Shown here piece by piece: positions 12,609 through 51,220 of a stretch of DNA of 64,000 nt. Each line of letters starts with the position of its first letter. Within the stretch, counting starts at the first letter, position 1. Both the position numbers and the translations under genes were made by a program. The DNA comes from an uncultured Thermoplasmatales archaeon (GTDB taxonomy: Archaea; Thermoplasmatota; Penumbrarchaeia; Penumbrarchaeales; Penumbrarchaeaceae). The stretch spans positions 48,646-112,645 of the forward strand of contig CAZLVP010000003.1 in the NCBI GenBank assembly GCA_964563055.1. The letters run 5' to 3'. Under the pieces are notes generated by a model. That model saw only the letters and a program-made list of their open reading frames with translations. It did no database searches and was not told where the DNA came from.

Positions 12609-12699
12609 CGGATGTGGATAGCACTACCCCTATTTATCGCCAGACCCCCATACTCCTATCAATAGGATTATGTGGGGCTTTCGCCCATCCCTTGGGACG

Positions 12700-13614: not shown

Positions 13615-13656
13615 GCCCATTTCGATTTGGGTCCAGGACAAGGTCAGGTGGCACCC

Positions 13657-14352
13657 ATGATATCGAAGAATGCCAGGATCAATAAGAACGTTGAGCTCGG
13701 GAAGGGAGGGACTGTGGAAGACAATGTCATCCTGGGCGCCCCTGTCAGAGGGGATGACCCCTACCCAGTCACAATTATTGGCGAAGGGGCCATGATCAGG
13801 TCCCATACTGTCATCTATTCCGGCAACAGGATAGGTCGGAACTTCCAAACGGGCAACAAGGCGAACATCAGGGAGACGAACGAGATAGGGGACGATGTTT
13901 CGATAGGGACCCTATCGGTAGTGGAGCATCATGTTACAATTGGCAACGGTGTGAGGGTCCATTCACAGGTGTTCGTTCCGGAGTTCAGCGTCCTTGAGGA
14001 CGGATGCTGGCTTGGGCCAGGCGTAGTCCTGACCAATGCAAGGTTCCCGAACACCCCCTACACCAAAGAGGAGCTAAGGGGACCCAGGATCTGCCAAGGG
14101 GCCAGGATAGGCGCGAACTCGACGGTCCTTCCGGGGATCAAGGTCGGGCCGTTCTCATTGGTAGGGGCAGGATCGGTGGTGACAAGGGACGTTTTAGAAA
14201 GGGAGGTCGTGGCAGGGAACCCCGCAAGGAGGCTTGGATGGTCCTGCACCTGCGGTGTGCCCCTCGATGGTGATGGGAAGGCACTTCTCTGCAGGAAGTG
14301 CGGAGCTAGGTTCGATGAGGGAGAGCCCCCCAAAAGGCTAGAGATGGGGTGA
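13657..14352 (+). CDS. Left-handed beta-helix (hexapeptide-repeat) sugar N-acetyltransferase with a C-terminal zinc ribbon.
   Basis: Hexapeptide repeats are present (IGEGAMIRSHTVIYSGNRIGRN..., IGANSTVLPGIKVGPFSLVGAGSVV). The C-terminus reads CTCGVPLDGDGKALLCRKCGARF. Confidence 0.75.
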   Translation: MISKNARINKNVELGKGGTVEDNVILGAPVRGDDPYPVTIIGEGAMIRSHTVIYSGNRIGRNFQTGNKANIRETNEIGDDVSIGTLSVVEHHVTIGNGVRVHSQVFVPEFSVLEDGCWLGPGVVLTNARFPNTPYTKEELRGPRICQGARIGANSTVLPGIKVGPFSLVGAGSVVTRDVLEREVVAGNPARRLGWSCTCGVPLDGDGKALLCRKCGARFDEGEPPKRLEMG

Positions 14353-14358
14353 GCTCCG

Positions 14359-14937
14359 ATGTGTCCTTTCGGTCCGGTCGAAAGGGCATTGAAGGAGAGC
14401 TCCCTGGTCATTTTCGACCTGGATGGGACCCTATTTGACCTTGAGGTGGATTGGAAGGGGCTATTGAACGAGATGGCCATGATAGCTTACGAGAGCAGGC
14501 ATGTTGGCCCCTTCAGGGACCTGGTCGAGGCATACGAATGGTGCAGGGGCAGGGAGAGGGCCAAAGAAAGGATGTTGCTGGTCCAGAGGGAGTACGAGGG
14601 AAAGGACCTCAAGAAGGCCAATCGGCTCTTCCCCGGCACCCTCGCAGCAAGATGGAGGCTTTCCAGGGACCGGATGTGCTCCATCTTCAGCCTGAACACC
14701 TCCTATACGGTCGAAGGTCTTGTCTCGTCCTGGGGCTTCTATCCCGTTGTGACCGTTGACAGGACAGAAAGGTCGAAACCGGACCCAGAGGGTCTGTTAA
14801 GGGCCATGAAGGTAAGGGGTGTAGGTCCGGACAGGACTGTTTTTGTCGGCAATTCCGAGAGGGACAGGGAGGCCGCCCTTCGGGCAGGGGTCATGTTCAT
14901 AGATGTGAAGGACATAAGGGAGGAATGGTTCACATGA
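14359..14937 (+). CDS. HAD-superfamily hydrolase (phosphatase).
   Basis: The DxD motif IFDLDGTLFD is present, with later FVGNSERD. Confidence 0.65.
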   Translation: MCPFGPVERALKESSLVIFDLDGTLFDLEVDWKGLLNEMAMIAYESRHVGPFRDLVEAYEWCRGRERAKERMLLVQREYEGKDLKKANRLFPGTLAARWRLSRDRMCSIFSLNTSYTVEGLVSSWGFYPVVTVDRTERSKPDPEGLLRAMKVRGVGPDRTVFVGNSERDREAALRAGVMFIDVKDIREEWFT

Positions 14938-16040
14938 CGGTCCAATTGAACAGGATGTTCGTTGACGATGAGATCAGGCAGGCGGCCCTGGAGACGATAG
15001 AGAGCGGTCATTATGTCAAGGGGCCCAGGGCATCGGAGTTCGAGAGCGAGTTCGCTCGGACCATAGGCGATGTCCGTGCGGTGAGCTGCTCGTCCGGGTC
15101 CACGGCACTGATGCTCGCCTTCAAGGCGCTGGAGATAGGAAGGGGGGACGAGGTCATCGTTCCGTCCCACACCTTCGTGGCGACCATAAACGGTTTCTGG
15201 CACTACGGTGCGAGGCCCAAGTTCGTGGACATAGACCCCGAGACCTACACCATGGACCCGGAGAAGGTCAGGAAGGCCGTAACGAAGAGGACGGCTGCCA
15301 TCGTTCCTGTCCATATCTACGGACATCCTGCAGAGATGGCCCCCATCCTCGAGCTCGGGGAGGAACTGGACATCCCGGTGATAGGGGACGCTGCCCAGTC
15401 CCACGGGGCGAAGTACAGGGGGGTGGACATCGGGAAGCTGGGGGACATGACATGCTATTCCTTCTTCCCCTCAAAGATCATAACCGTCGCCGGGGAGGGG
15501 GGGATGATAACCTGCGGTGACGAGGAGCTTTGCGAGCTCCTCCAGGCCCTCAAGGACCACGGCAGGTACCCGTCGGACCCAGAAAGCAAGTACAGATCGA
15601 CCATAGCCGGTTTCAATATGAGGCTCCCGGAGCTTCTGGCCGCAATAGGGAAGGTCCAATTGAAGCACATGGAGGGATGGATAGAGAGGAGGAGGGAGCT
15701 TGCGGCTATCTACAATAATGAGCTGGAAGGCGTCGGGGACCTTGTACTGCCCGTGGAGAAGGAGTGGGCCCGGCATGTCTATTATCTCTATGTCGTGAGG
15801 ACGGCAGCGTCCGGTAGGAAGGCATTGATGGAGCATCTTAAAAAGGACGGCATCTCGACGGGCATCCATTATCCCATTCCCGTCCACAGGATGCCATATA
15901 TCAAGAAGGCCCCGAGATTGCCAGTTACGGAGAGGATAGTTGACGAGATAGTGTCCCTTCCCATGCATCCTCTGATGACGGAAGAGGAGCATGGAGCGGT
16001 GATATCCTCCGTCAAAGCGTTCTTCAAGCAGAAGAGGTGA
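14925..16040 (+). CDS. DegT/DnrJ/EryC1/StrS-family PLP-dependent sugar aminotransferase.
   Basis: The pattern VKGPRASEFESEFA...AVSCSSGSTALMLA...HIYGHPAEM...DAAQSHGAKY is typical of the family. Confidence 0.85.
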   Translation: MVHMTVQLNRMFVDDEIRQAALETIESGHYVKGPRASEFESEFARTIGDVRAVSCSSGSTALMLAFKALEIGRGDEVIVPSHTFVATINGFWHYGARPKFVDIDPETYTMDPEKVRKAVTKRTAAIVPVHIYGHPAEMAPILELGEELDIPVIGDAAQSHGAKYRGVDIGKLGDMTCYSFFPSKIITVAGEGGMITCGDEELCELLQALKDHGRYPSDPESKYRSTIAGFNMRLPELLAAIGKVQLKHMEGWIERRRELAAIYNNELEGVGDLVLPVEKEWARHVYYLYVVRTAASGRKALMEHLKKDGISTGIHYPIPVHRMPYIKKAPRLPVTERIVDEIVSLPMHPLMTEEEHGAVISSVKAFFKQKR

Positions 16041-37222: not shown

Positions 37223-37828
37223 ATGAAGCACGTTAAGGTGATGGGTTTCGACCTTGATGGGACATTAGTCAAGATCAAACTGGATTTCAGGACAATACGA
37301 AAGGAGCTCGGCATCCCAGAGAGGGACATCCTTTCATACATCTCCTCTCTACCAAAGCCACAGGGCGACAAGCTCCTCAGGGCCGTCGAGGATCGGGAGA
37401 TGGAAGCTGCAGAGAAGGCCGAGATAATGGAAGGCGCCCAGGAGCTATTGGAACATTGCAGGTCCAGGGACATCCGTGTCGTGGTCATCACCAGGAACTC
37501 GGAAAAGGCGAGCAAACGGACCCTTTCCAATTTGGACCTGGAGGTCGATATGGTCATATCCAGGGAGCACTCGGCGCCCAAACCCTCGCCCGAACCGCTC
37601 AACATGGTTCTGGGTCACTTCAAGATCGAACCTTATCAGATGGCCTTTGTAGGTGATTACCTATTTGACATGCAGGCCGGAAGGGCGGCCGGGGTCAAGA
37701 CCATCCTTCTTACGACACAGGAGAGCTGTGACCAGTGGGCCCATGCCGCTGATTTCGTCGTCACCGACCTATACGAGGTCCTGGACCTTCTCAAGGAAGG
37801 CCGGGAGGCCCAGTGCAATGTCCGTTGA
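37223..37828 (+). CDS. HAD-superfamily hydrolase.
   Basis: MKHVKVMGFDLDGTLVK and FVGDYLFDMQAGRAAG are present. Confidence 0.65.
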   Translation: MKHVKVMGFDLDGTLVKIKLDFRTIRKELGIPERDILSYISSLPKPQGDKLLRAVEDREMEAAEKAEIMEGAQELLEHCRSRDIRVVVITRNSEKASKRTLSNLDLEVDMVISREHSAPKPSPEPLNMVLGHFKIEPYQMAFVGDYLFDMQAGRAAGVKTILLTTQESCDQWAHAADFVVTDLYEVLDLLKEGREAQCNVR

Positions 37829-38582
37829 TGCGAATGGAGGCAAGGGTGGGCCAAGGCTCCATCTGATGCTCGTCGATTCCGAACTAGAGATGGTCCCCAA
37901 GGAACTATGGTCCCATCCCTCCGTGGCATCCAACGCCAGAAAGAGGGGTAAGAGACCCTCTCAGGTACTGCTCGATTCCAATCTCCATCACAATGCTCTG
38001 GGAAGCAGGGAAGAGGCTATGAGGAGGGGTAGGCCGGACATCGTCCATCAGTTCCTGCTCCTGGGGCTAGATTCACTGCTCAACCTTGAGGGCGGGCTGA
38101 GGATCTACGTCCATACCAGGAACGATGAGCTCATAGGTGTGGCCCCGAACACCAGGCTCCCCAAGAACCTTAACCGGTACATGGGCCTGTTCGAGGAGCT
38201 TTTCGCATCAGGTGCCGTTCCAAGCAAGGAGGACCCCCTCCTATCGCTCACACCTGGCATGGACCTTGAGAAAAGCATTTCATCTGTCAAGGACAGTGCA
38301 CGGTCGGCCGGAAGGGACCTCACGATCGTCCTTCTCGATCAGGAAGGGGAGAAAAAAGGGGCCTACGAACTTTTCAGAGACCTACCTGGTCTGGTCGAAG
38401 GAAGAAGTGATGTCCTTTGTCTGGTCGGCGGGTTCTCTCATGGCGACTTCAGATCGGATGTGAAAGCTATAAGCGACCGATCGATCAGCCTTTCCGACTC
38501 GATTCTCAAGGTCTGGGGCGTCGAGATGGAGCTCATTGTGGCCTTCAGGTACTCGATGGGAGAGGGGAAGGGCTCAAAGTAG
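37818..38582 (+). CDS. nep1: Ribosome biogenesis methyltransferase Nep1/EMG1 (SPOUT).
   Basis: RPDIVHQFLLLGLDSLLN is the Nep1 signature. The start overlaps the upstream HAD gene. Confidence 0.75.
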   Translation: MSVDANGGKGGPRLHLMLVDSELEMVPKELWSHPSVASNARKRGKRPSQVLLDSNLHHNALGSREEAMRRGRPDIVHQFLLLGLDSLLNLEGGLRIYVHTRNDELIGVAPNTRLPKNLNRYMGLFEELFASGAVPSKEDPLLSLTPGMDLEKSISSVKDSARSAGRDLTIVLLDQEGEKKGAYELFRDLPGLVEGRSDVLCLVGGFSHGDFRSDVKAISDRSISLSDSILKVWGVEMELIVAFRYSMGEGKGSK

Positions 38583-39500
38583 GCCGTACTTCTGGAGGAG
38601 CATCAGGTCCTCGGTCGAGAGCTTCTCTCCCCTCATGAACTTCTCATAGATCTTCTCGGCCTCGAGCTTTGCCGAGACCGGTGAGGGTTGGGCCGTTGTT
38701 TGGGTCGAAGGCGTGGCCGTCTTCTGGACCTTTTTCTCCTGTGCCCTCTTTCTCTGTCTGAGGGCTATTATGAGCCTATCGAGGTCGTGGACCAGATGTA
38801 TGAGCTCTATGTGCTTCCAGTGCTCCTCGTCGGCCTTCACCTTTGAGGCGACGAAGCTCTCCTGACCGGCATCGGCCTCCTTACGGACCTTGTCCGATTC
38901 GCTGAACCGCTCTATCATCTGGTCATGTTCCTTCTGGGCCAGGTCCGCATATTCGTTGACCATATGGTGGGAATCGTCCATCTTCTTCTTTGCATCGCGG
39001 ACCTTCTGGATGATCTCCCTCATCTCCTCGTTGGCCTCGAACTCCTTCTCCTTCTTGTCTATCTGGGACTTGATCTTGGATATCCTCTCTACAAGGTCCC
39101 TTTCCTTGTCGGCCTCAAGGACCGATGTCTGTTGCTTGAACTCAAGGTCCTTGACCTCCCTTTTCAGCCGGGCAAGGTTCCTCTCCTCCTCCGCAGAGCT
39201 GGTCCTGGATTTCTTGAGCTTGTCGAGCTTTGCCTTCTCCTCGGCGAATACCTTGGTAAGGAGGTCCCTGTTGGCCTTCTCCTGCTGGACCTTTGAATTG
39301 AACTCGTCACGCCTCTCTCTGAACCGGGATGCCTCCTGCAGGAGCTTCTTTACTTGGGCATTGTGCCTGTCCCTGGTCTCAGCGAAGCGCTTCGTCTCCT
39401 GGTTCAGCCTGTCACGCTTCTTCCTATGCGCGTCGGCATCGGCATTGAGCTTGTTCCTGCGCTCCTCCAGTTCCTCGAGGTATTCGGTCATCCCTATCAC
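38574..39500 (-). CDS. Lys/Glu/Arg-rich coiled-coil protein, function unknown.
   Basis: Heptad-rich K/E/R sequence runs over about 250 aa. Confidence 0.45.
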   Translation of the reverse strand: MIGMTEYLEELEERRNKLNADADAHRKKRDRLNQETKRFAETRDRHNAQVKKLLQEASRFRERRDEFNSKVQQEKANRDLLTKVFAEEKAKLDKLKKSRTSSAEEERNLARLKREVKDLEFKQQTSVLEADKERDLVERISKIKSQIDKKEKEFEANEEMREIIQKVRDAKKKMDDSHHMVNEYADLAQKEHDQMIERFSESDKVRKEADAGQESFVASKVKADEEHWKHIELIHLVHDLDRLIIALRQRKRAQEKKVQKTATPSTQTTAQPSPVSAKLEAEKIYEKFMRGEKLSTEDLMLLQKYGLL

Positions 39501-39722
39501 ACAATGTCCATCTTTTTGCCTGCGGGGGAGAACGGGAGCATGCTGGCCCCTGTCCCGGGCTTGGGGGCTATTATAGGGCTACTTTTTAAGGATTTCCATA
39601 TTAGGCATGTTTGTCAATGGTCTGACCATCAGAGGGTCCTTAGGGGCTCCAGTCGGAAATCTACTGTAACATTAATTATATCCCCTGACCGTTGTACCGT
39701 CAGTCAAGGTCGGTGTCAGAGC

Positions 39723-40361
39723 ATGGGCCCGGTGGAGATAGCATTGGTGGCGGCCATAGTCGCATTGGCCCTTGTCCTCTTCTTCTGGACGTTACTGAGC
39801 TCCGTGGTGATCATCCAGCAGTACGAGTCCGGGGTCTATATGAGGCTCGGAAGATATAAAAGGACGTTGGGACCAGGCCTACATCTGGTCGCTCCATTCG
39901 TGTCAAGGATATACAGAGCGGACACACGGGCCCAGGTACTGGACATAGGGAGGACCGAGCTCATGACCCGGGACATGTCACCTGTAGTTGTCGAGGCATT
40001 CATCCAGTACCGTATGGTAAGGCCGGACAACAGCCTTCTCAAGGTGGAGAAATACAGGTCCACCCTATCCCAGATCTCCCACGTCACCATGAGGAAACTT
40101 GTACTGGAACATGATCTGGATGACATCCTACGGAACATTCCCACTATCGGCAAGCAGTTGAAGGAAAGGCTATCCTCAGAGGGCGAAACCCTTGGGGTGG
40201 AGATAGTCCGGGCTGAGATAAAGGAGCTTGAGCCCGTAGGACCTATCAAGGCCGCGATAGAGGATAGGATAGCTGCAGAGAAAGAGAGGCAGGCCATGAT
40301 ACTCAGGGCCGACGGCAGGAAGAGGGCTATGATGATGGATGCCGAGGGGAAAAGGTCCTGA
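39723..40361 (+). CDS. SPFH/band-7 (stomatin/prohibitin-like) membrane protein.
   Basis: An N-terminal TM (IALVAAIVALALVLFFWTLL) is followed by an SPFH core (VIIQQYESGVYMRLGRY...). I set the start at the ATG at 39723. Confidence 0.75.
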   Translation: MGPVEIALVAAIVALALVLFFWTLLSSVVIIQQYESGVYMRLGRYKRTLGPGLHLVAPFVSRIYRADTRAQVLDIGRTELMTRDMSPVVVEAFIQYRMVRPDNSLLKVEKYRSTLSQISHVTMRKLVLEHDLDDILRNIPTIGKQLKERLSSEGETLGVEIVRAEIKELEPVGPIKAAIEDRIAAEKERQAMILRADGRKRAMMMDAEGKRS

Positions 40362-40440
40362 ACCCACCTTTAAGGGTCCATCTGACGCTTTGATGATGAT
40401 AATTTTATAATAGAAGTAAAGGGTTCATTTTCGACGACAC

Positions 40441-41460
40441 ATGCTCAAGAAGATCTCAATGACAGTCGATGAAAGGGTACTCCTCCACCTTATGGATTTC
40501 ATACCCTTCGAGGAGGATTTCGAATCGCCCGAGGGTACGACCCAGGCAGGGATAGCCAAAGGGGTGGCCATAGAGAGGAAGCACATCCCCAGAGCGGTCA
40601 AGAAGCTCATGTCCGACAACCTTGTCGAGACCAAGGTCTCACATGTCAGGGGTGCCAAGCAGAGGAAGAAGGTCTATTTCCTGACCTTTGAAGGCAAGGC
40701 ACTGGCCAGGAGGATATGGGAATCCTTGGCAAAGAAGCCTGTCATAATCAAGGACGAGTCCGGTAACGAGACCGAGACGACATTCTCAGAGCTCTGCTTC
40801 ACCTATCAGGTCGGAAGGACCCCGCTCCAGCTCCTTCAGGACTTCCAGGACGGGAATGTGTATTCCCCGACAGCCTCCGCAAAGCAGACGGTCGAGAAGG
40901 AGACCAAGAGACCGTCAAAGGAGGGTAAGGTCGATGGTGCGAAGGAGGTCTACCGGAAGGCCCTCGTGAAGGCCTGGGAGGATTCCATACTGACCAAGGA
41001 GGAATCCCAGCTGCTCAAAGAGCTAAGGGACTCCCTTGGGATAACCGAGCTCGATCATAGGAACCTGCAGGAGGAGATACTCGGGGGCGGTAAGGCGCAG
41101 GGGAGGGAGCTCAACAGGTCCGAGATCTACAGGAAGGTCCTCGAGGTCGCGGTCAGGGACGGCCGGATAACCCAGGACGAGCAGGACATCCTCGATGAAC
41201 TGGAGAGATCGCTAGGTCTGAACAAGGACCAGGCCATGAAGCTGAGGATGGAGATGCAGCTCCTCAAAGGTGAGGGTATAATGACCCCGGAGAAGAGGGA
41301 CCGCAACTACAAGGACATATACGGGTCCGTCATAAGGGAGTCCATGAAGGATGGGAAGATAAGCAGGGACGAGCAGAACCTGATACTTCTTTTAAAGAGG
41401 CTCCTTGAGATAGAGGACAAGGAGCACCTGGACATCTACAACGATGTGAAGGGGGCCTGA
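40441..41460 (+). CDS. Winged-helix N-terminal domain protein with three tandem repeats of about 45 aa ('Y(R/K)K.L..A..DG.I..DE...L..L...LG').
   Basis: The repeats YRKALVKAWEDSILTKEESQLLKELRDSLGI, YRKVLEVAVRDGRITQDEQDILDELERSLGL and YKDIYGSVIRESMKDGKISRDEQNLILLLKRLLEI are present. The motif reappears in the protein at 45525-46805. Confidence 0.55.
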   Translation: MLKKISMTVDERVLLHLMDFIPFEEDFESPEGTTQAGIAKGVAIERKHIPRAVKKLMSDNLVETKVSHVRGAKQRKKVYFLTFEGKALARRIWESLAKKPVIIKDESGNETETTFSELCFTYQVGRTPLQLLQDFQDGNVYSPTASAKQTVEKETKRPSKEGKVDGAKEVYRKALVKAWEDSILTKEESQLLKELRDSLGITELDHRNLQEEILGGGKAQGRELNRSEIYRKVLEVAVRDGRITQDEQDILDELERSLGLNKDQAMKLRMEMQLLKGEGIMTPEKRDRNYKDIYGSVIRESMKDGKISRDEQNLILLLKRLLEIEDKEHLDIYNDVKGA

Positions 41461-41542
41461 AGGGGCATTTTCTTGTCATGTTCGCTTCAAAATCCTTTTA
41501 TAATATACTCAAGATGAGGTCATATAACGGGAAGGTCGATAT

Positions 41543-41824
41543 ATGCTGGAAGAGCTTACATCATTGCTGGACCTGAGGGTTTATACACCGTGGGGAGTGG
41601 AGATCGGGGGTATAACCAATCTCGAGATAGATTCCGAGATGAGCGAGATCTCGAACTTGATCATCGAACAGACCAATGAGAAGATAGTGGAGGATGGGGC
41701 CAGCATCATGATACCCTACAGGTGGATCATGGCCCTTGGCGATATCGTTATACTCCGCCACTTCCCCCAGGACCTTCCGATAAAGAACACCTCTGAGCTG
41801 GGAGTGGGAGAGTACCGCTACTAG
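41543..41824 (+). CDS. PRC-barrel domain protein.
   Basis: LDLRVYTPWGVEIGGITNLEIDSEMSEISNLII is typical of archaeal PRC barrels. Confidence 0.6.
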   Translation: MLEELTSLLDLRVYTPWGVEIGGITNLEIDSEMSEISNLIIEQTNEKIVEDGASIMIPYRWIMALGDIVILRHFPQDLPIKNTSELGVGEYRY

Positions 41825-41834
41825 GGGTCCGATC

Positions 41835-42047
41835 ATGCCACCAGGAAAAGAGGCTCCTTTAGAGAGGACCTGCGATGTCGAGAGATGTCAGTCGAAGGCC
41901 GAACGCTCGGTGAATGCGAAGAAGGCTTCGAAGGCAGGCCTAGAAGTGAAGGGGGAGAGGGGGAACGTCCACCTCTGCAGGGAGCATTACAGGCAGTTCA
42001 AGAAGGGGACCAAAGAGGATAGGAAGCTCGAGAGGCTCGGATGGTAG
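41835..42047 (+). CDS. Small Cys/His-containing protein, possibly zinc-binding.
   Basis: The C-x4-C...H-x-C-x2-H arrangement (CDVERC...HLCREH) is present. Confidence 0.35.
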   Translation: MPPGKEAPLERTCDVERCQSKAERSVNAKKASKAGLEVKGERGNVHLCREHYRQFKKGTKEDRKLERLGW

Positions 42048-42119
42048 GTCCTGTTCCAGAACGCAAGATTGATATCTTAAAAGGATTTCAACCCACTGGG
42101 ACCACATAGGTAATGCAGT

Positions 42120-42197
42120 GGGCACGTAGTATAGCCTGGATAATGCGTTAGCCTCCTAAGCTAAATGCCAAGGGTTCGAATCCCTTCGTGCCCGCCA
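42120..42197 (+). tRNA. tRNA-Arg (anticodon CCT), with CCA encoded.
   Basis: I folded it by hand. The acceptor GGGCACG/CGTGCCC, D stem GTAT/ATGC, anticodon stem TTAGC/GCTAA with loop CTCCTAA, T arm AAGGG-TTCGAAT-CCCTT, discriminator G and CCA are all in place. Confidence 0.8.
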
Positions 42198-42213
42198 TTT
42201 TTTTGTTAAAAAC

Positions 42214-42246
42214 TGGCGCACTCAGGGTTCGAACCCTTGATTGGCG
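42214..42246. other. tRNA-like fragment (T-arm plus acceptor 3' strand) with no 5' half.
   Basis: TGGCGCACTCAGGGTTCGAACCCTTGATTGGCG contains the palindromic T-arm core GGTTCGAACC. It reads as ...GAGTGCGCCA-3' on the minus strand. I found no complementary 5' acceptor strand within 200 nt. Confidence 0.3.
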
Positions 42247-42416
42247 TTACTAATCCTGATAAATGAACGTTCATGAGAAGGTAAGTATTTTATTACAGCT
42301 AATTTCAAAAGAAGAGAATGGGGTAATTTAGAGATTATTTGAAAGAAGTGTCAGGACGATTTCTGGGGTCGCTGACGGTTCAGTAGTAGGTGGATCAGGT
42401 TCATTGTTGTAAGGGT

Positions 42417-44078
42417 TCATCGCTGGGTCGTACCTGCCGATGGGACGCCGTTCTCGATATTGATAAAATCCCTCAAGAGCGAATTGCTCACCCTCTGCCG
42501 GTACTCCCTTCTGCTCATCTGATAGATTATGACGTCCGCCTTCCCGCCATCGACCGGCTGGTACTCACGAAGGATCCCCGCCTTCCTGAAGCCTGTAAGT
42601 TCCAGTACCCGCTTGGTCTGGTCCTTTGTCGCGGTAACGTATGTGATGAGGTTCTCCAGCTTCATCCTGTCGAAGGCTATGCCCAACAGGAGCTCGGCCG
42701 ATTCCTTGCCGTAACCCTTGCCCTGGCTATCCTTGTCCCCTATCAGGAAGGATATCTCCGCGCTCTTGTTCAAAGGATTGATGTTCTCCAGGGAGCAGAC
42801 CCCTATCTCCCTTCCATCGGAACGTTCGAGCATCAACAGATCGAAATCGTCATGGCCGGATATGAAATACTTGTCTATGAGATTGTCCTCGGAGTAGCTG
42901 TGGACATCGAACCCGTTCTCCCCCTTGTTCACCTCTAGCTCGTTGTACCATTTCGATATGAGGTCAAGGTTCTCGTACTTCACAGGTTTGAGGATGAGAT
43001 TATCCGTCATGTAGGCCTCGTCCGTGGCCCTGGAGGTCTTCATAGGGTCGATCCTGTAGCGCTTCAAGGCCTCCTGAACGATCCGTTCTATGATCTGCTT
43101 GTAGGGGTATCCCGCCGCGTTGGCGCTCCTTACGAACCCGCCATCCAGATAGATCCAGGGATTGGGGTTCACCTCAAGAACGTAGGGGACACCGTCCCTC
43201 AGGCGAATATCGACCCTTGCATAGTCCCTGCAACCAGTTGCCTTGTAGGCATCGAGCGCCGCCTTCTTCACCCTTCGTTCGATATCAGGTGGCAGGTCCG
43301 CAGGGCACACCCCTGTGGTCCGATTATAGACATCCGTACCCTCGCACCACTTCGCCTGGTAGCTAACTATGTTCGGCTGTCCCTTTTCGAAATCGAAGGT
43401 TATCTCCGAGATGGGCAGGACCTCTAGCTTGTTCCCGTTCCCGATTATGGAGACGTTCAGTTCCCTTCCGTCTATGAACTCCTCGACGAGGGCGGGCTGA
43501 TGGAAGTTCTTGAGGATCCTTTCGACCATCACCTCGAGCTCGGCCCTGTTGTTCACAAGAGAGTCCATGGATATCCCAAGGCTCCCGTCCTCCATCGCAG
43601 GTTTGACGAAAAGGGGATAGTTCAGTTCGGGGTCGGTCGATTGCTTCTTTCTCACGAACTTCTGGTACTTAGGTGTCGGGATATCGTTCGCCACGAGCAT
43701 GTGCTTTGTCCGTATCTTGTTCATGCACAGTCCGAGGGTGAAGGAATCGGACCCGGTATAGGGGATCTCCAACAGGTCAAGGAAACCGGGTATCCATGGT
43801 TCTTTCTTGGAATCCTCCTCCAGCCCCTCACAGAGGTTGAAGATGAGGTCGAAGCTCCTTCTTCGCAGCGTCTGGATGGCGTTACGGCTCACACGGATGG
43901 GTATGACCTCATTATCGTCCTTTAAGACCGAGAGGATGCTCTGAACGGGATCACCGATCTCGCTGTCGGGCATTATGTCTATGTCCTTCCCGTAATCGGT
44001 GCTCTCGACGATGTTGTAGAGGATGCCTATCTTCATTGCTATCGACCGGAAGGCCATAGGCACATTGCTGCCCTGCAC
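42417..44078 (-). CDS. Fusion protein with an N-terminal ATP-grasp ligase (D-Ala-D-Ala ligase-like) and a C-terminal GNAT (RimL-like) N-acetyltransferase.
   Basis: The N-terminal half has MKIGILYN, a central Ddl-like ATP-grasp and EVNPNPW near the end of the grasp fold. The C-terminal half has GNAT motifs ISFLIGDKDSQGKGYGKESAELLLGIAFD. Confidence 0.6.
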   Translation of the reverse strand: MQGSNVPMAFRSIAMKIGILYNIVESTDYGKDIDIMPDSEIGDPVQSILSVLKDDNEVIPIRVSRNAIQTLRRRSFDLIFNLCEGLEEDSKKEPWIPGFLDLLEIPYTGSDSFTLGLCMNKIRTKHMLVANDIPTPKYQKFVRKKQSTDPELNYPLFVKPAMEDGSLGISMDSLVNNRAELEVMVERILKNFHQPALVEEFIDGRELNVSIIGNGNKLEVLPISEITFDFEKGQPNIVSYQAKWCEGTDVYNRTTGVCPADLPPDIERRVKKAALDAYKATGCRDYARVDIRLRDGVPYVLEVNPNPWIYLDGGFVRSANAAGYPYKQIIERIVQEALKRYRIDPMKTSRATDEAYMTDNLILKPVKYENLDLISKWYNELEVNKGENGFDVHSYSEDNLIDKYFISGHDDFDLLMLERSDGREIGVCSLENINPLNKSAEISFLIGDKDSQGKGYGKESAELLLGIAFDRMKLENLITYVTATKDQTKRVLELTGFRKAGILREYQPVDGGKADVIIYQMSRREYRQRVSNSLLRDFINIENGVPSAGTTQR

Positions 44079-44230
44079 GCCCCTTGGCCGACCGTATGTC
44101 GAAGAGGATAAATTATTCTATCGGAATTTCGGTCCTTTTCAACAAGGATAACAAGCTACATCGATAGCATTCAAAAGGTCCCTTCACCGCTCTTCTGCCT
44201 TGCGACCGATCGTGTCTTCGAATTAGGTCT

Positions 44231-44791
44231 TCAGGTCCCTTTGTCCGTGGCACGTTCGATCGATGACAGTTCGGGCATCCTCTCCTTAAGATGTCTGTAG
44301 AGCCTCAGAAGCTCGGAGGCCTTCTCCCTCACATGTTCAAGGACCTCACCGTACCTTCCATCACGGTACAGCTGAGGGACCGATTCGCTGGGTATCTTGA
44401 TGTTCACGAAACTGTCAAGGGATGCGCCCTTGAAGCTGCCCCTGTTCATCATCACGAGCAGGGGTTTCAGGTCAAGGAAGGGTTTGGACCCCAGCAGATA
44501 CAAGGGGTCCGGTGCCTCCAGACCGTTCCTCCTGGCCCTCTCGACCAGGAAGGAATAGATGAACGGAACGTTGACGCCTATCGCCACGAACGAGAAGGGT
44601 CCGAAACCGTTGAAGATGGGCAGGAAGAGCTCGAGGACCTCCTTCTCGGAGCTTTCCCATGTCGTGAGGATATTGAGGGCGCTCTCCTCCCTTCCAGTCA
44701 ACATGCCAAGCCTCTGATATGAGATCGTGACTATGGTATCCGTTCTCGGGTCTAGACCCGTCGTTCCAATGTCGAGATAGTACTCAGGCAT
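44231..44791 (-). CDS. RNase-H-like/DEDD-type exonuclease-fold protein with a degenerate Exo I motif.
   Basis: The N-terminus YYLDIGTTGLDPRTDTIV resembles the DnaQ Exo I motif 'DhETTGL' but has Gly where the catalytic Glu should be. Confidence 0.4.
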   Translation of the reverse strand: MPEYYLDIGTTGLDPRTDTIVTISYQRLGMLTGREESALNILTTWESSEKEVLELFLPIFNGFGPFSFVAIGVNVPFIYSFLVERARRNGLEAPDPLYLLGSKPFLDLKPLLVMMNRGSFKGASLDSFVNIKIPSESVPQLYRDGRYGEVLEHVREKASELLRLYRHLKERMPELSSIERATDKGT

Positions 44792-44857: not shown

Positions 44858-45475
44858 TTAGCCCACCCTTTTCCATTCGTGATAAGGTTTGATGCTGAAG
44901 AACATACCTGCTTCCTGCGCCTCGGCAGGGGTGGGGTTCCTCCCGACCTTGGCGGATGCCATGCTCGGGGATGCAGGTACGATCTCTCCGAACGGCTGCG
45001 TCCTGACGAAGATCTGCATCCTTACAGTGTGTCTTTGGCAGAGAGGGGCCTGCGTGAAGAAGCACCTGTTCACCGGTCTGCCGCCGCAGACAGAGCACCC
45101 CGTTACGAACCTTGGGTCCTCCACCTCACCCTCCTCCTTCTCCCCATCCCCCTCGACAAGGATGACCTTTGGCCTTTCCTTACCCAATGTTTCGAACGGG
45201 GAAACGAACTCAGTGCTCTCGACCTTCCTCTCGTCCGCTGTGCCACCCCATCTCATTGGCTCTTTAGCGGCCTTCCTCCTTTCTAGCTGCTCACTATCAC
45301 GCCTTTGGTCCGGGATGGGTGGTGCCCATGCACGTTCCTCTGTTCTAGGCTGCCTCACCTGTCTGGGGGTCAGAAGGTCCGTCCTCATCTTGTTGATCTC
45401 GTAGCCGCAGACAGGGCAAAGTTTGCCCGATCCCTTGAGGTTCGATCCGCATTTCGTACAGTACATCATGGTCAT
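44858..45475 (-). CDS. Protein with two zinc ribbons (N-terminal and C-terminal).
   Basis: The N-terminus is MMYCTKCGSNLKGSGKLCPVCGYE. The C-terminal part has CSVCGG...CQRH. Confidence 0.5.
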   Translation of the reverse strand: MTMMYCTKCGSNLKGSGKLCPVCGYEINKMRTDLLTPRQVRQPRTEERAWAPPIPDQRRDSEQLERRKAAKEPMRWGGTADERKVESTEFVSPFETLGKERPKVILVEGDGEKEEGEVEDPRFVTGCSVCGGRPVNRCFFTQAPLCQRHTVRMQIFVRTQPFGEIVPASPSMASAKVGRNPTPAEAQEAGMFFSIKPYHEWKRVG

Positions 45476-45524: not shown

Positions 45525-46805
45525 TCATTTCATGATCCTTCCCTTTGCCCCGCATGAGGAGCAGACAACGACGACAGGCCTTTCCTCTGTCGTGATGGGG
45601 ACCCCTGAGCCGCACTTAGGGCACGGGATCACTTTGTAAACTATCTCCACAGGTTCCTCCTCCATCTCCTCCACGCCCTCCTCTTCACCGTTCGCCCCAT
45701 CGACCCCTTCATCCCCCGGTCCCTCGGCGGGAGGTGCCTGAGGGGCAGTGGAGGTCTTCGGAGGGCCGTCTTCAAACATGTCATCGTCAAGGTAAGAGGA
45801 GCCATCCTTCTGCTTGACAGGTCTGGGAACATCAATACTATCGATCGCGGTCCTATCTGGACCGAGTTCCGAATCCATCTGTCGGACATCATCTTCAAGC
45901 TTAGGTTGATCACCGGGACCTGGTGCGGTCCTTTCGGGCATGTCGACAGCTTGTCGAGGAGGTTCGACCTCAACATCATCGGACCTTTCCTCTACCTTGA
46001 CCTTTGGCTTTTTCTTCCCTTCTTTCCTATCGACCTTAGTGACCTGAGGTGGAGGGGTGTCCACCATATTCACGGACCGCACCTCGACACTTTCCTCTAT
46101 CCTGGCCTTGACCTTGAGCGCCATCCCGTTATTTGGGTCCCTCTCGAGCGCCATCGATACATCGTCCTTTGCATCCTCTGGTCTTGCCATCGAGAGGTGC
46201 GTAAGGGCCCTCTCAATGAAACCGATAGGGTGCTCGGGGAAGGATTCGACGGCCCTTGTCGCGCATGCTCTGGACTTTTCAAGGTTACCTTTTTTCCTCT
46301 CGAGCCTTGAAAGCATGACCCATGAGAGGGTCTGGTCCGGTTCTGCCTCCAATGCCCTTTCGAAGCAGTCCATGGCAGCTTCAGTGTCCCCATGGGTAGT
46401 GTAGGCTATCCCCTTCCAGAACCATGCCTCGTCCGAATGAGGGTCGAGCTCTAGGGACCTTTCTAAAGACCCCAAGCCCCCCTCCACATCTCCCATGAGG
46501 TACTGCAGGGAGCCCTTCTTCATCCAGAGAAAATCGTTCTCATGGTCGATGGTGAGAGCCTTATCGATAAGGGCCAGCTGTTGGTCGTACGGTGTGGTCT
46601 CGTACTCCCTCCACCTATATCGCAGGTATTCCCTTGCCTCCAGCTCGGAGACCTTCTCAGGGGATATGGGCAGGCCGTCCGAGAACTGGGTGATGACGTT
46701 CCTCTCATCGTAGGAGATCCTCCCATCCTCCCAGGCCTTCCTGAGGGCGTTCCTGAAGGCCTTCACAACGCTTATGTCATCTCCATCGGTATCAACCATG
46801 GTCAT
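45525..46805 (-). CDS. TPR-repeat protein with an N-terminal 'WEDGRI' repeat module, an acidic linker and a C-terminal zinc ribbon.
   Basis: AFRNALRKAWEDGRISYDERNVITQFSDGL is the repeat module. TPR-like helices run over about residues 100-230. The C-terminus reads CPKCGSGV...CSSCGAKG. Confidence 0.6.
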   Translation of the reverse strand: MTMVDTDGDDISVVKAFRNALRKAWEDGRISYDERNVITQFSDGLPISPEKVSELEAREYLRYRWREYETTPYDQQLALIDKALTIDHENDFLWMKKGSLQYLMGDVEGGLGSLERSLELDPHSDEAWFWKGIAYTTHGDTEAAMDCFERALEAEPDQTLSWVMLSRLERKKGNLEKSRACATRAVESFPEHPIGFIERALTHLSMARPEDAKDDVSMALERDPNNGMALKVKARIEESVEVRSVNMVDTPPPQVTKVDRKEGKKKPKVKVEERSDDVEVEPPRQAVDMPERTAPGPGDQPKLEDDVRQMDSELGPDRTAIDSIDVPRPVKQKDGSSYLDDDMFEDGPPKTSTAPQAPPAEGPGDEGVDGANGEEEGVEEMEEEPVEIVYKVIPCPKCGSGVPITTEERPVVVVCSSCGAKGRIMK

Positions 46806-47185: not shown

Positions 47186-48286
47186 TCAGAGCAGTACCAG
47201 GTCGAATGCCAGCAGTGTGACGATTGCGAACATTGTCGATAGGAAAAGACCGTTGGAGATCCTTCCTGATGACATGATACCTCCGACCACACCGTCCCCA
47301 ATGGCCTGTATCGCCGCAGCGGCAAATAGAAGGAGCTTCATCACCCCGAAATCCACTATGGTCGGGTCAAAACCACCTGGGGCCTGAGCAGAAGAGGAGG
47401 AATCACCGGTCTGATAGCTCTTGGAGAGCTCCTCCATCCTCGGCATGAAGGTTGCGAACATGACCGCTATGACGACAAGGAAGACCATGAAAGATATGGC
47501 TATCACATAGGTGTACATTGACATCTCAGTGGCCCTGGTCCTCTTCATTATCTGTATCTCCCTGGTATCCTTGGCGGCAGCGTCTATGACGTTCGATACG
47601 TTCCCGCCTGCGCTTGCCGCCTCATTTATCAGGGTCACCGCTCTCTTCACGAGAGGTGTATGGACCCTCTCAGCGAACATTTCGAGCGCCTTTGAGGCGG
47701 ATACGCCCCACGATACCTGGATGGCCATCTTCTTGATCTCGGGGGTAAGATACCCGTACTCACCGCCGGCAGATGTCTTGATCGCTTCATGAAGCGTCTG
47801 GCCAGCCCTCATGGACTCCGATATGTCCCTAAGGAAGTCCGATAGTCTTTCCTCTATCTTGTCGACCTTCCTCCTCTTGCGGACCTCATAGAATGATATC
47901 GGGCCAACCCCGCTGATGAACGATAGGAGCAGGAAGGAGTGCCATTCTATCCTCACCTCGCTCTTCACCCAGAATCCCGTCGTATTGAAGGTCAGGTTTA
48001 TCGGATTGAACCCTTCCTTCATGGAGAGCCTCTGCTTGTCCGGACCCAAGCTGTCGTAGGTGTCCTTGTACTCGTCCTTAACATTTGAGACAGGTAGGAA
48101 AGGCATGTTCATCAGGCTCAGCATTAAGAAGAACAATGCTAGGACGATCGAAATGGTATAGACGATGTATTTCTTCCTCTCCTCCGGGTCCTTGGCCACT
48201 TTGATGGTCTTCACTGTCCGGCCGCCTTTCTTCTGGCCTTGGAGCTGCTTGCGCCCGACCTTGGGGCTATCCTTGGCTACCATCAA
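47186..48286 (-). CDS. Type II secretion / archaeal pilus platform protein (FlaJ/TadC-like).
   Basis: It is polytopic with the T2SS-F-like pattern and has a Lys-rich N-terminal tail. Confidence 0.6.
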   Translation of the reverse strand: MMVAKDSPKVGRKQLQGQKKGGRTVKTIKVAKDPEERKKYIVYTISIVLALFFLMLSLMNMPFLPVSNVKDEYKDTYDSLGPDKQRLSMKEGFNPINLTFNTTGFWVKSEVRIEWHSFLLLSFISGVGPISFYEVRKRRKVDKIEERLSDFLRDISESMRAGQTLHEAIKTSAGGEYGYLTPEIKKMAIQVSWGVSASKALEMFAERVHTPLVKRAVTLINEAASAGGNVSNVIDAAAKDTREIQIMKRTRATEMSMYTYVIAISFMVFLVVIAVMFATFMPRMEELSKSYQTGDSSSSAQAPGGFDPTIVDFGVMKLLLFAAAAIQAIGDGVVGGIMSSGRISNGLFLSTMFAIVTLLAFDLVLL

Positions 48287-49182
48287 TCCGCCCCCGTATC
48301 ACCGATAAGAACAGCAAATACGATCTGGGCCACAGGTATGAGCCCGAAGATGGTTGCCATGAGCAGTGTATCCCCGCCCTGCTGCCCCATCATGGCCATC
48401 GTCGACATCATGATTATCAGGAAGAGGGGAGCGGCGACGACGACTGTAACGAAGCTCTCTGCCATGACACCCAGGGTCTGCATGTCCCTCTCCTGTTTCA
48501 GGCGGTTCTCCTTCATGAACTGCTCGGATTTGGCCATGAAATAGACCTTGAGGGAGCCTCCGGAGTTCGAGGTCGTGATAATACCCTGAAGGAAATCCTG
48601 GAACCGCTCCGAGGGGCTTCTGGCGATGGCCTTTTGCAGGACCTTAATGATATCCCTGCCGAAGAAGTCTATGTCCCTTGCGATCTTCTCCGCCTCCGTT
48701 CTGACCTCGCCGTATATCTCCTGTTCGGCCAATCCGCGGAAGATGGCAGTTGGGGTAACATCGGCCGACGACATGGCGGCCATATAGTTAGTGGCATAGG
48801 ACAGGTTGTTCTCTATGCTTTTCTTCCTTTCCGAGACGGCGTTCCTGGGAAGGCCCATGAAGATCGCGTAGGTGAACATACCTACCAGAGGCGGGACCGC
48901 GATCCAGATTACGAGCTTTATCGGTAATGGGAGGCCAAGGCTCTCCAGAATGGTCAGGTTCAGAATGGTGGCGACAATGAGCCCCCCGATGATGGCCAAT
49001 ACGACCGAGACCAACATCCCGGTGTAATAGACCTCGCCCCTGAGGTTGTAATTGGCCCTCTCCATGATGCTCTCGATATCGGGATCGTTATCGGCGAGCT
49101 TTTTCCCAAGCTTTGTCAAAGGTCCTATCTTCATGCTAGCCTTGAAGTAGGGTGTCAGGGTCATCTCATCCACCTCCTGCAT
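48283..49182 (-). CDS. Type II secretion / archaeal pilus platform protein (FlaJ/TadB-like).
   Basis: It is polytopic and T2SS-F-like. It overlaps the upstream ATPase gene by 17 nt. Confidence 0.6.
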   Translation of the reverse strand: MQEVDEMTLTPYFKASMKIGPLTKLGKKLADNDPDIESIMERANYNLRGEVYYTGMLVSVVLAIIGGLIVATILNLTILESLGLPLPIKLVIWIAVPPLVGMFTYAIFMGLPRNAVSERKKSIENNLSYATNYMAAMSSADVTPTAIFRGLAEQEIYGEVRTEAEKIARDIDFFGRDIIKVLQKAIARSPSERFQDFLQGIITTSNSGGSLKVYFMAKSEQFMKENRLKQERDMQTLGVMAESFVTVVVAAPLFLIIMMSTMAMMGQQGGDTLLMATIFGLIPVAQIVFAVLIGDTGAD

Positions 49183-51220
49183 TCTGAGGGGCCTGTCCTA
49201 TGGGTGGTTGTTGGCTCGCGCTACTACCACTATATGGGGGAAGAGCTTCCTTCGATGCGCTAGGAAGCTTTTCGATAGGAGCGTTATCGAAGAGCCGCAG
49301 TCCCTTCTTGATATCAATCTCCCTGTTCTCCCTGATGAGCTTAATGAGCTTGTCAGAGTCCTCATAATATTCAACGATCATCTTGCTCACGTCGGTGAAC
49401 TTCCTCACTTCGTTCTTGAGCATCCACTCTATGACCTCGGCCCTCCTGTTGAGCTCATGGATGACCTCGTCCCTTGTCATATCCTCCATATCCATGATCT
49501 TCTCATAAAGGTTAGAGTGGCCACCGAATACGAAATGGTCCCCGTTCCCTTCCCACCTGTAGACCCTGTTGGTGATGATCTCAAGGCTCGTAGGCTCGAT
49601 ACCGACTATCTCGACGAGCTCGGTGATCCTCCTGACCCTCATACCCTTGACCCTTAGCTGGTTGTGGATGGCGACCAGGTTGAGGGCTTGTATCAGGACC
49701 CTGGGGATGGAGATGGGTGGGTTCTCGAGACGATAGACGATGGATTTTACGGAATCAGCATGCATGGTTGAATATGTGATGTGGCCTGTGGCCATGGCCT
49801 GGAACATGGTCATGGTCTCCTTGCCCCTGACCTCACCCACAAGGACGTATTCTGGGCGTTGCCTCAATGCAGCCCTAAGAAGCTGGTACATATCGATATC
49901 GGTCTCGCGTCCCCCTTCCGCCGAACCCCTGGTAAGGCCTGCTATCCAGTTCTGATGAGGCAGGTTGACCTCCCTAGTGTCCTCTATCGAGATTATCTTC
50001 GCTGAGGTGGGGATGAAGATCGATGTGGCGTTCATCGTTGCGGTCTTGCCCGATGCCGTACCGCCTGCGAATATCATAGAGTCCCCATACTGGACCGCAA
50101 GCCAAAGGTGGGCGGCCATCTGTGGTGATATCGTCCCAAACTTGACCAGGTCCGTGATGGTGAGCGGGTCCTCCTTGAACTTCCTGATGGTGAATGAGGA
50201 ACCTCTCGTTGTCACCTCCCTGCCGAAGGTCGCGTTCAACCTGTGGCCTTCTGGAAGTGTCGAGTCAAGGATAGGATGTGCAACGGATATCGTCTTACCT
50301 GCCCTCTGGGCGAGGGACACTACGAACCCCTCGAGCTCCTCGTCCGATTCGAACTTGATGGTGGTCCGGATGGACCCGAAGTTCCGGTGGTATACGAAGA
50401 CAGGGATACCCGTACCATCACAGGATATATCCTCGACCCCCTGGTCCTTCATCAGGCATTGGATCTTGCCATATCCTATATACTCCCTCCAGACATGATA
50501 TCTGATAGGTTCCATGAGCTCTGTCGTCACATCTCCGATCACAGACCTATAATCCCTGAGGATGATATCGAGCTCTTTCTTTAGGAACCTCTCTTTCTCA
50601 ACGAGGACCTCCATTGCCATCTTGTCGTAGTTCAGAGAACTGGAAAGGGTCTCCCTGATGAACTCCAGTATCTTCTTCTGTCTTGGACCGAGCCTTGGCT
50701 CGATAGGGTGGTAGATGTATTCGTTCGTTACGGGATTGAGATAGATCTCGACACTGACGTTCTTATCACCCAGTTCCAGGGTCTCCATGAGCTCGACCCC
50801 TTCTTCCAGGTCCTTCTTGGAATCGTCGCTTATCTTTGCGATCTTCTTGATGTGGACCTCCCTATCGGGCTTGGAAAGGATCGACCTCAGCGTGTCTCCG
50901 AACCTCTTGACAGGTGAGGACCTCTGGTGTTGGGCCCCTTTGTCATTATCCTCCGTAACTGCTGACTCGTCCTGTTCGACCTCGGTGACCTTACCGTTCA
51001 CGGAAGAAGGTACTATGATCTGTTCTGTTGTGGTCCCTGCCGGACCGGGGGGGACCTGTAGCGTTCTAGGTCTGTTATTAGGGCTTTCAGAAATCTTGTT
51101 AGGGAATTTACCCTTATCTGTTTCGTCCGATCGAACATCTTTCCCCGTGACGTTCTCGGTCGGGACTTTCTCGGATGGACCGCCATCCCCAGAAATTCTT
51201 TCCTTCTTCCCTTCCGCCAT
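49166..51220 (-). CDS. FlaI/TadA/VirB11-family secretion ATPase with an N-terminal extension of about 170 aa that looks disordered.
   Basis: Walker A FAGGTASGKTATMNA is present. YVLVGEVRGKE and the His-box region are present. The N-terminal 170 aa are rich in K/E/P/S. Confidence 0.8.
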   Translation of the reverse strand: MAEGKKERISGDGGPSEKVPTENVTGKDVRSDETDKGKFPNKISESPNNRPRTLQVPPGPAGTTTEQIIVPSSVNGKVTEVEQDESAVTEDNDKGAQHQRSSPVKRFGDTLRSILSKPDREVHIKKIAKISDDSKKDLEEGVELMETLELGDKNVSVEIYLNPVTNEYIYHPIEPRLGPRQKKILEFIRETLSSSLNYDKMAMEVLVEKERFLKKELDIILRDYRSVIGDVTTELMEPIRYHVWREYIGYGKIQCLMKDQGVEDISCDGTGIPVFVYHRNFGSIRTTIKFESDEELEGFVVSLAQRAGKTISVAHPILDSTLPEGHRLNATFGREVTTRGSSFTIRKFKEDPLTITDLVKFGTISPQMAAHLWLAVQYGDSMIFAGGTASGKTATMNATSIFIPTSAKIISIEDTREVNLPHQNWIAGLTRGSAEGGRETDIDMYQLLRAALRQRPEYVLVGEVRGKETMTMFQAMATGHITYSTMHADSVKSIVYRLENPPISIPRVLIQALNLVAIHNQLRVKGMRVRRITELVEIVGIEPTSLEIITNRVYRWEGNGDHFVFGGHSNLYEKIMDMEDMTRDEVIHELNRRAEVIEWMLKNEVRKFTDVSKMIVEYYEDSDKLIKLIRENREIDIKKGLRLFDNAPIEKLPSASKEALPPYSGSSASQQPPIGQAPQNAGGG

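Follow-up and report, generated by a model that had tools for sequence, protein, structure and literature searches.

A probable decayed inverted copy of the tRNA-Arg(CCT) 3′ end and a probable orphaned promoter of a lost surface-protein gene at a proposed integrase hotspot of an uncultured Thermoplasmatales archaeon

In this study, we analyzed a 64,000-nt stretch of DNA from an uncultured Thermoplasmatales archaeon (referred to here as the window; positions are those of the window unless another contig is named), with emphasis on a 33-nt element that lies just behind the tRNA-Arg(CCT) gene and on the AT-rich patch that follows it. An earlier reading made from the letters alone (the sequence-only reading) had suggested that the element was either the scar of an integration event or one half of a split tRNA, and that the unusual genes downstream might belong to an island. 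Our data indicate that the element is probably a decayed, inverted copy of the tRNA end at an integrase hotspot, and that the patch is probably a promoter left without its gene, which encoded a PKD-domain surface protein. According to this explanation, the 3′ end of tRNA-Arg(CCT) would serve as the attachment site for a family of tyrosine integrases in this Thermoplasmatota family, and site-specific recombination would have rewritten the slot that separates the tRNA from a conserved right flank. The 33-nt element would then be the inverted-copy part of a module from which the hairpins and the terminal direct repeat have disappeared. Decay would also have begun, with deletions in the T-loop-equivalent and acceptor parts in the window and other acceptor changes in its nearest distinct relative, L003. 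The PKD open reading frame (ORF) would have been removed from the window genome, such that its promoter and leader stayed behind with 59 unrelated nt in place of the ORF.

The intact tRNA-Arg(CCT) gene (42120-42197, plus strand), in which the CCA is encoded, was detected by ARAGORN and by Rfam (RF00005, 64.2 bits). It is the sole tRNA in the window, and neither program found any other tRNA part in the 64 kb, in keeping with the earlier remark that no 5′ half lies nearby. The gene is followed by a 16-nt spacer, TTTTTTTGTTAAAAAC (42198-42213), by the 33-nt element TGGCGCACTCAGGGTTCGAACCCTTGATTGGCG (42214-42246, minus strand), and by the AT-rich patch (42240-42410), all placed correctly in the sequence-only reading. 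The element occurs only once in the window; the second copy that would have delimited an island was not found there. Its tRNA-matching part (42214-42239) spans the T-loop, the acceptor 3′ strand, and the CCA. When the reverse complement of the fragment, CAAGGGTTCGAA-CCCTGAGTG--CGCCA, was aligned with gaps to the last 29 nt of the tRNA, CAAGGGTTCGAATCCCTTCGTGCCCGCCA, there were 25 matches, 2 mismatches, and 2 gaps, and its earlier description as an inverted tRNA 3′ fragment was thus borne out. When the tRNA end was scored against each of 2550 tiles of 100 nt taken from the two strands of the window, the tile containing the fragment had the maximum score of 30 (mean 11.9, sd 2.1), and the next unrelated tile, a direct match located 17 kb away, scored 24. 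A chance match is ruled out.

Compared with the tRNA, the fragment has a 1-nt deletion in its T-loop equivalent and a 2-nt deletion in its acceptor part. On the minus strand, 6 nt rather than 7 nt make up the T-loop equivalent, and the two outermost pairs of the T-stem do not match. The plus strand folds into a perfect T-arm-like hairpin (CAGGG/TTCGAAC/CCTTG); because a perfect 14-nt palindrome, AGGGTTCGAACCCT, lies within the fragment at 42224-42237, the fragment matches the T-arm both directly and in inverted orientation. Close relatives carry the same element. Logan contig L001 does not differ from the window across the 901 nt that were compared (41800-42700). The closest genome that is distinct from the window is L003 (JGI), with which L004 and L018 (NCBI GCA_025457865.1) agree; L003 has an anchor protein of 93% identity, and its left flank and tRNA are as in the window. 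The L003/L004/L018 copy of the fragment, TGGGGCACTCAGGGTTCGAACCCTTAATTGGCC, has 4 substitutions. The 1-nt deletion in the T-loop equivalent is common to the window and L003, but the acceptor indels differ (GTGCGCCA in the window versus GTGCCCCA in L003), with acceptor ends reading ...GAGTGCGCCA in the window and ...GAGTGCCCCA in L003, as compared with CGTGCCCGCCA in the tRNA. A shared T-loop deletion combined with differing acceptor indels is the pattern expected for a decaying relic. The window copy thus appears to be non-functional, and would at most form a hairpin with the tRNA end behind a T7 terminator.

The last 16-20 nt of the tRNA-Arg(CCT) gene, reading (G)AATCCCTTCGTGCCCGCCA, appear from the sequence comparisons to be the attachment core (attB) for a tyrosine-integrase family found in the relatives. 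In L017 (metagenome-assembled genome [MAG] PPR_0074; anchor protein 94% identical), homology with the window extends over 37490-42204 at 86% and stops at 42204, 7 nt past an identical tRNA. A metagenome contig, L095, also has an identical tRNA, followed by the same downstream sequence as in L017. On L095, the tRNA directly neighbors a gene for a 391-aa tyrosine integrase (Phage_integrase PF00589, E = 7e-19) with visible R..HxxR..Y motifs; this gene is on the opposite strand, and its stop codon is 12 nt from the tRNA discriminator base. Two homologous integrases (42-43% identity) were found on contigs L113 and L114. The L113 integrase gene adjoins the 3′ end of a tRNA-Lys(CTT), and the L114 integrase adjoins a bare 16-nt core, ATCCGGTCGTGCCCGC, equal to the tRNA-Arg(CCT) end. 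Because no tRNA is attached to this core, it appears to be an attP-like site. In all three contigs the attachment core is outside the int gene, and the arm following the core shares the motif CTTyCAyTTTTTTC...TCTGGCTCA. Moreover, the 14-20-nt repeats that form arrays in other relatives (described below) have the same extent as the integrase-adjacent core. The L114 integrase and its core (6167-7300) are on a contig of 36% GC, on which the bare core abuts the start of a gene for an 1828-aa CARDB surface protein; a weak Zot-like NTPase (E = 0.003) was also noted, and the contig ends without a terminal overlap that would indicate circularity. L114 may be a virus or plasmid with an attP and surface-protein cargo.

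A metagenome scan for GAATCCCTTCGTGCCCGC returned 66 loci, among which only L075 and L095 were informative; 63 of the 66 were chance matches, mostly in bacterial coding sequence, and L101 was an unrelated tRNA. L075 has an identical tRNA followed by yet another downstream sequence, which contains PKD-like and GT2 genes, such that L075, L095, and L003 represent three further downstream states behind the same tRNA. In addition, ten independent contigs (L005, L006/L020, L013, L011, L004/L018, L025, L017, L022, L023, and L027) break at, or at most 400 nt after, the tRNA end. Such breaks point to repeats at this position, or to differences between strains within natural populations.

Mosaic exchange at the cores is evident from pairwise comparisons. 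L021 and L023 share their module (89%) but not the flank past the repeat (50%, background), and L023 diverges right behind the second core; conversely, L029 and L021 agree in the post-repeat flank (79%) and diverge in the module (59%). In L029 and L031, the present tRNA 3′ end agrees with the adjacent inverted copy, whereas the downstream repeat represents another variant. This pattern would be expected if incoming DNA supplied a new tRNA end and displaced the old one. In L031, the alternative variant would restore a Watson-Crick pair in the T-stem. Taken together, the L017 break, the L095 integrase, the repeats of the relatives, and their variable gene content uphold that part of the integration-scar proposal according to which this is a site of site-specific integration or recombination. 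The other part, that the fragment itself is an attB/attL remnant bounding an island, fails: the fragment is inverted, has no partner repeat in the 64 kb, and is common to L003.

The modules mentioned above emerged from a survey of 19 distinct related Thermoplasmatota lineages, gathered via the anchor protein, in which the 3′ part of each lineage's tRNA was aligned with its own downstream DNA. An inverted copy of the T-loop-to-acceptor 3′ segment of the lineage's own tRNA was present in 15 of the 19; these copies are 11-21 nt long, often perfect, and located about 17-65 nt downstream of the tRNA, with their first position 17-50 nt behind it. L008/L024, L017/L095, and L075 are without any inverted copy. 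Eleven of the 15 also have a 14-20-nt direct repeat of the tRNA end (for example, GAATCCGGACATGCCCGCCA) at 100-175 nt downstream, and several have 2-3 tandem units with periods of 119-175 nt. Each module is non-coding, is about 120-175 nt in length, and consists of an AT-rich spacer, the inverted copy, two hairpins, and the direct repeat (the att core). The tRNA 3′ end has six variants within the family, and in 15 of 16 lineages no other variant fits the inverted copy better than that of the lineage itself (which is uniquely best in 11); for the window fragment, its own variant is the best or tied-best match.

The two hairpins between the inverted copy and the repeat have 8-10-bp stems, and these stems are unrelated between lineages (TGGGTCC/GGACCCA, TCGAGCCC/GGGCTCGA, CAGCCAATG/CATTGGCTG, and TGGATGTT/AACATCCA). 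Both the closing stem and the first of the two hairpins were recovered, with compensatory changes, in a MAFFT/RNAalifold consensus, but the hairpins were too divergent and the alignment was poor; as the consensus was only partly usable, the structure of the module was taken from single-sequence folds. In these folds, pairing between the inverted copy and the downstream repeat closes the unit; the z-scores were -2.7 to -8.4 for the intact modules of L012, L021, L023, L027, L028, L029, and L031, and -2.05 for L010. The modules of the window and L003 retain the inverted copy alone; they have neither the direct repeat nor any hairpin except for a short palindrome, ATGAACGTTCAT. We infer that the modules are either att-arm remnants or mini-elements moved by the integrase.

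Several further observations concern these units. In L012 (8143-8250), L029 (4142-4250), and L021 (7941-8040), another unit-like stretch is found past the second core repeat; it contains no inverted core copy, but has a hairpin of 13-16 bp immediately behind the core (TCTTTATAAATTC...GAATTTATAAAGA) and a second hairpin that resembles the first hairpin of the units (AAGCTAAATCGCC...GATTTAGCGAGG). These stretches may be an older, differently built unit. In L027 (7891-8126), a perfect 102-nt tandem repeat with a period of 134 is located at the contig end, just past the tRNA-linked unit, and could represent a genuine array or an error of assembly. When viral contigs were scanned, there were no matches to the tRNA end and none to the fragment, and no free element carrying the units was found; 10 matches to the core-spacer-inverted-copy pattern were in GC-rich bacterial phage coding sequence lacking a tRNA and were attributed to chance. 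Full-text searching of the literature found no description of such tRNA-linked units.

The AT-rich patch requires no foreign DNA. As the sequence-only reading had noted, 42240-42410 is conspicuously poor in GC (0.374, versus 0.546 for the whole window); it is the lowest 171-nt stretch of the window, and the 0.08% of 171-nt windows that are equally GC-poor all overlap this spot. Within it, 42247-42333 (plus strand, GC 30%) aligns collinearly (about 84% identity) with L003 11808-11894, a stretch that stops 1 nt before the ATG of a PKD-domain ORF (1345 aa, 11896-15933) with a signal-peptide-like start. In L003, the AT-rich region is followed by the PKD ORF and then by an ATP-grasp-GNAT gene that is convergent to the PKD ORF. 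The blastn comparison between the window and L003 yielded two blocks, window 41400-42333 with L003 10960-11894 (86%) and window 42393-44502 with L003 15937-18049 (82%). In the interval between them, a 59-nt junction filler in the window (42334-42392) stands in place of the 4042-nt PKD segment of L003 (11895-15936). By its position, 42247-42333 would be the orphan upstream region (promoter and 5′ leader) of the lost PKD gene, and it contains a TATA-like sequence, TATTTTATTA, at 42286-42295. The patch thus appears to be the conserved upstream region of an L003-type PKD gene, and the notion that it represents AT-rich foreign DNA was not sustained.

The filler gave no match above the shuffled background within the PKD ORF and so does not appear to be a leftover of that ORF. 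In addition, tblastn detected no PKD homologue in the window; relocation of the gene within the window is thus unsupported. We infer that the ORF was deleted in the window lineage rather than inserted in L003, because a promoter-like region kept at about 84% identity without its gene would be hard to explain otherwise. The orphan upstream region also includes the palindrome ATGAACGTTCAT at 42263-42274, which has one change in L003; it is possible that this palindrome was a regulator site or a hairpin of the promoter of the lost PKD gene.

A number of observations weigh against the reconstruction given above. The window has no integrase (best E = 0.27 when tblastn was performed with the L095 integrase), and no direct copy of the tRNA end was found in it at up to 3 mismatches in 29 nt; because both are lacking, the recombination history of this genome is read from its relatives. 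The elements of L095, L113, and L114 are themselves without an inverted core copy, and thus the link between integrase and inverted copy is indirect. Among the lineages found, none has an intact module together with the tRNA variant of the window (T-stem AAGGG/CCCTT), and L032, which has that same variant, carries only the inverted copy. Finally, a 21-nt core of the fragment, GCACTCAGGGTTCGAACCCTT, is the same in the window and L003, although the neighboring DNA is about 15% divergent; the chance of this is about 0.03 by our own estimate, which hints at some constraint.

Such constraint would be accounted for if the fragment were a working cis element, either as the hairpin partner of the tRNA 3′ end (in transcription termination, in control of 3′ processing, or as a cruciform recombination site) or, through its palindrome AGGGTTCGAACCCT, as a binding site for a regulator. 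For the latter, the palindrome is situated about 80-110 nt upstream of the PKD ATG in L003, but the PKD gene to be regulated is gone from the window. For the former, the fragment, if co-transcribed, would pair strongly with the tRNA 3′ half (minimum free energy -56.7 kcal/mol, z = -5.6), with the spacer (42198-42213) as the loop of the joining hairpin, and an inverted copy has been kept at the same place, co-varying with the tRNA, in 15 of the 19 lineages. Archaeal RNA polymerase halts at oligo-T, and the T run of the spacer is probably the stop for tRNA-Arg transcription; this run, T7, comes directly after the CCA and should end transcription ahead of the fragment. The oligo-T can be read on either strand of TTTTTTTGTTAAAAAC, and the spacers at the same position in the relatives are AT-rich and 18-21 nt long (about 45-50 nt in L010, L021, L023, and L031). 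Furthermore, the pairing is imperfect because of the differing acceptor indels of the window and L003 and the shared deletion in the T-loop equivalent, and the lineages that lack any inverted copy manage without one. We therefore regard a working cis element as unlikely, though not negligibly so.

Much less probable is the proposal that a second, convergent tRNA gene, which once shared a bidirectional oligo-T terminator with tRNA-Arg, left the fragment as its 3′ remnant when its 5′ part was later overwritten. The minus-strand piece does end ...GTGCGCCA followed by GTTTTT, like a tRNA 3′ end and its terminator, but across 16 lineages the inverted piece fits the adjacent tRNA-Arg variant rather than an independent tRNA, never reaches past the T-loop into the equivalent of the variable loop, anticodon, or D-arm, and lacks the discriminator and CCA in most lineages.

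Split tRNA genes are known from Nanoarchaeum equitans and Caldivirga maquilingensis, and the stand-alone T-arm-like core with an acceptor-like 3′ strand had led the sequence-only reading to consider that the fragment is the 3′ half of a trans-spliced tRNA whose 5′ half lies elsewhere in the genome; on the minus strand, the piece also carries CCA. We consider this reading scarcely credible: unlike those halves, the piece covers only T-stem to CCA, and lacks both an anticodon-stem strand and a leader that could pair with a partner; its T-loop of 6 nt and mismatched outer T-stem pairs are defective, its acceptor is not conserved, and the indels that distinguish GTGCGCCA from GTGCCCCA would break pairing with a partner; tRNA models do not match it even at E <= 10; no candidate 5′ half is present in the 64 kb, where a search for GCGCACT..G gave a single extra match (52145), in coding sequence and at the chance rate; and it is a copy of the adjoining intact tRNA, whose variant it tracks.

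Other candidates were rejected. Rfam reported nothing beyond tRNA in the region (E <= 10), in the whole window, or in the loci of five relatives, and weak matches to mir-605 and to plastid untranslated regions (UTRs) merely reflect the inverted repeat. A retroviral primer-binding site was considered, as the fragment starts with TGG, the complement of CCA, but the inverted copies of most lineages end at position 72, without that complement. A Casposon-like target duplication was dismissed as the units have no flanking terminal inverted repeats. The IS110 bridge-RNA idea was also set aside: the neighboring 'DEDD' protein is DnaQ-like and no IS110 transposase, and the copies comprise 19-25 contiguous nt beside an 18-nt repeat.

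Elements of the pNOB8 and SNJ2 types carry tyrosine integrases, use attachment sites in tRNA genes, and have attP outside the int gene. The site described here resembles theirs in that a tRNA gene is targeted at its 3′ end, the reconstituted tRNA lies directly beside the integrase gene in L095 and L113, a short tRNA-end core lies beside the integrase in L114, core repeats are found downstream, and the gene content is variable. It differs from them in that both an integrase and a direct repeat are missing from the window. Unlike a classic attL or attR, the piece in the window is an inverted core copy, which is absent from the integrase-bearing elements as well.

CTX-type phages (integrative mobile elements exploiting Xer [IMEX]) use a folded single-stranded attP, and integrons have attC sites. 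The units in the relatives are similar to these systems in that an inverted copy of the recombination site near the junction could fold back to mimic a duplex target, and in that integration regenerates a usable site and gives tandem arrays of short, hairpin-forming, gene-less cassettes. The geometry of the units (core, 16-25-nt loop, and inverted copy) is compatible with a folded att site. Unlike those systems, this one has no Xer/dif or IntI/attI, and its core is a tRNA end. The units can also be compared with cis-mobilizable elements (CIMEs; PMC5704250), which are likewise gene-less, bounded by att cores, and arranged in tandem behind the target gene; as in CIMEs and tandem accretion, other elements are able to insert at the distal core (L023). 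In contrast to CIMEs, the units are only 120-175 nt, and thus far shorter, and share a fold-like design of an inverted core copy and two hairpins with lineage-specific stems; their mobility is a proposal made here.

A more tentative idea, which we regard as possible but rather doubtful, is that the 120-175-nt units constitute an undescribed class of small, structured, gene-less cassettes, of which the window fragment would be a dead copy. Each unit would be closed by a tRNA-like acceptor/T-stem helix, formed by the inverted copy and the next core repeat and ending in G-CCA, and this helix would enclose the two hairpins whose stems are fully different between lineages. Such cassettes could be mini-elements moved by the tRNA-targeting tyrosine integrase, perhaps via a folded single-stranded att site; alternatively, they could be tRNA-like non-coding RNAs excised from the tRNA-Arg transcript by tRNA-processing enzymes.

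With respect to the surrounding genes, the gene to the left of the tRNA (40441-41460) has homologues solely in uncultured Thermoplasmatota MAGs. To the right, the variable slot of the window (42198-44230) contains the fragment, the orphan promoter, and, as its sole gene, a fusion of ATP-grasp (D-Ala-D-Ala-ligase-like; PF07478, 1.8e-33) and GNAT (PF13302, 4.2e-14) domains (42417-44078, minus strand). L003 has this gene plus the PKD gene, whereas L010, L019, and L028 have no fusion gene in the interval from the tRNA to the DnaQ-like gene. Each lineage has a different gene content between the tRNA and the conserved right flank; elsewhere it includes PKD, NosD/beta-helix, FG-GAP, or GH43-like surface proteins and metabolic genes. 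An AbiEii toxin gene with a neighboring gene (L031 8167-9647, minus strand) and a fragment of a DDE_5 transposase (L012 8356-8718, plus strand) were also observed in slots.

The conserved right flank starts with the gene for a 186-aa DnaQ-like protein (44231-44791, minus strand), followed by a Zn-ribbon gene (44858-45475) and a TPR gene (45525-46805). L010, L028, and L019 all encode an orthologue of the DnaQ-like protein (56-62% identity); in the first two its gene immediately follows the tRNA-linked modules, and in L019 one surface-protein gene intervenes. The sequence-only reading had counted the unusual downstream genes, including the ATP-grasp-GNAT gene, the DnaQ-like ('DEDD') gene, and the Zn-ribbon gene, as a possible island, and had called for a synteny comparison. 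That comparison places the ATP-grasp-GNAT gene in the variable slot, where the PKD indel relative to L003 is also found, but the DnaQ-like, Zn-ribbon, and TPR genes fall outside it; being kept beside the tRNA in L010, L019, and L028, these three are conserved neighbors of the tRNA and not cargo of an island. The DnaQ-like protein of the window has a Gly where the orthologues of L010, L019, and L028 have the Glu of a YLDIETTGLDP exonuclease-type motif, and it gave no Pfam match and no significant sequence match in the PDB; a catalytic residue may thus have been lost in the window genome. Just past the right flank, two T2SSF-type membrane genes and a T2SSE-type ATPase gene (47186-51220, minus strand) probably form a type IV pilus or archaellum-like assembly locus.

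For the window itself, the findings amount to an ordinary hotspot relic and the clean loss of a surface-protein gene whose promoter was left behind, together with a corrected annotation in which the DnaQ-like, Zn-ribbon, and TPR genes are no longer assigned to an island. The unexpected part lies in the relatives, in which structured units bounded by copies of the tRNA end occur family-wide and assort independently of their flanks; if these units prove to be mobile or transcribed, archaea would have miniature cassettes or tRNA-like RNAs of a kind that is new. As the slot that contains them mostly holds large surface proteins (PKD, CARDB, NosD, and FG-GAP), site-specific recombination would in that case be linked to variation of the cell surface in these organisms.

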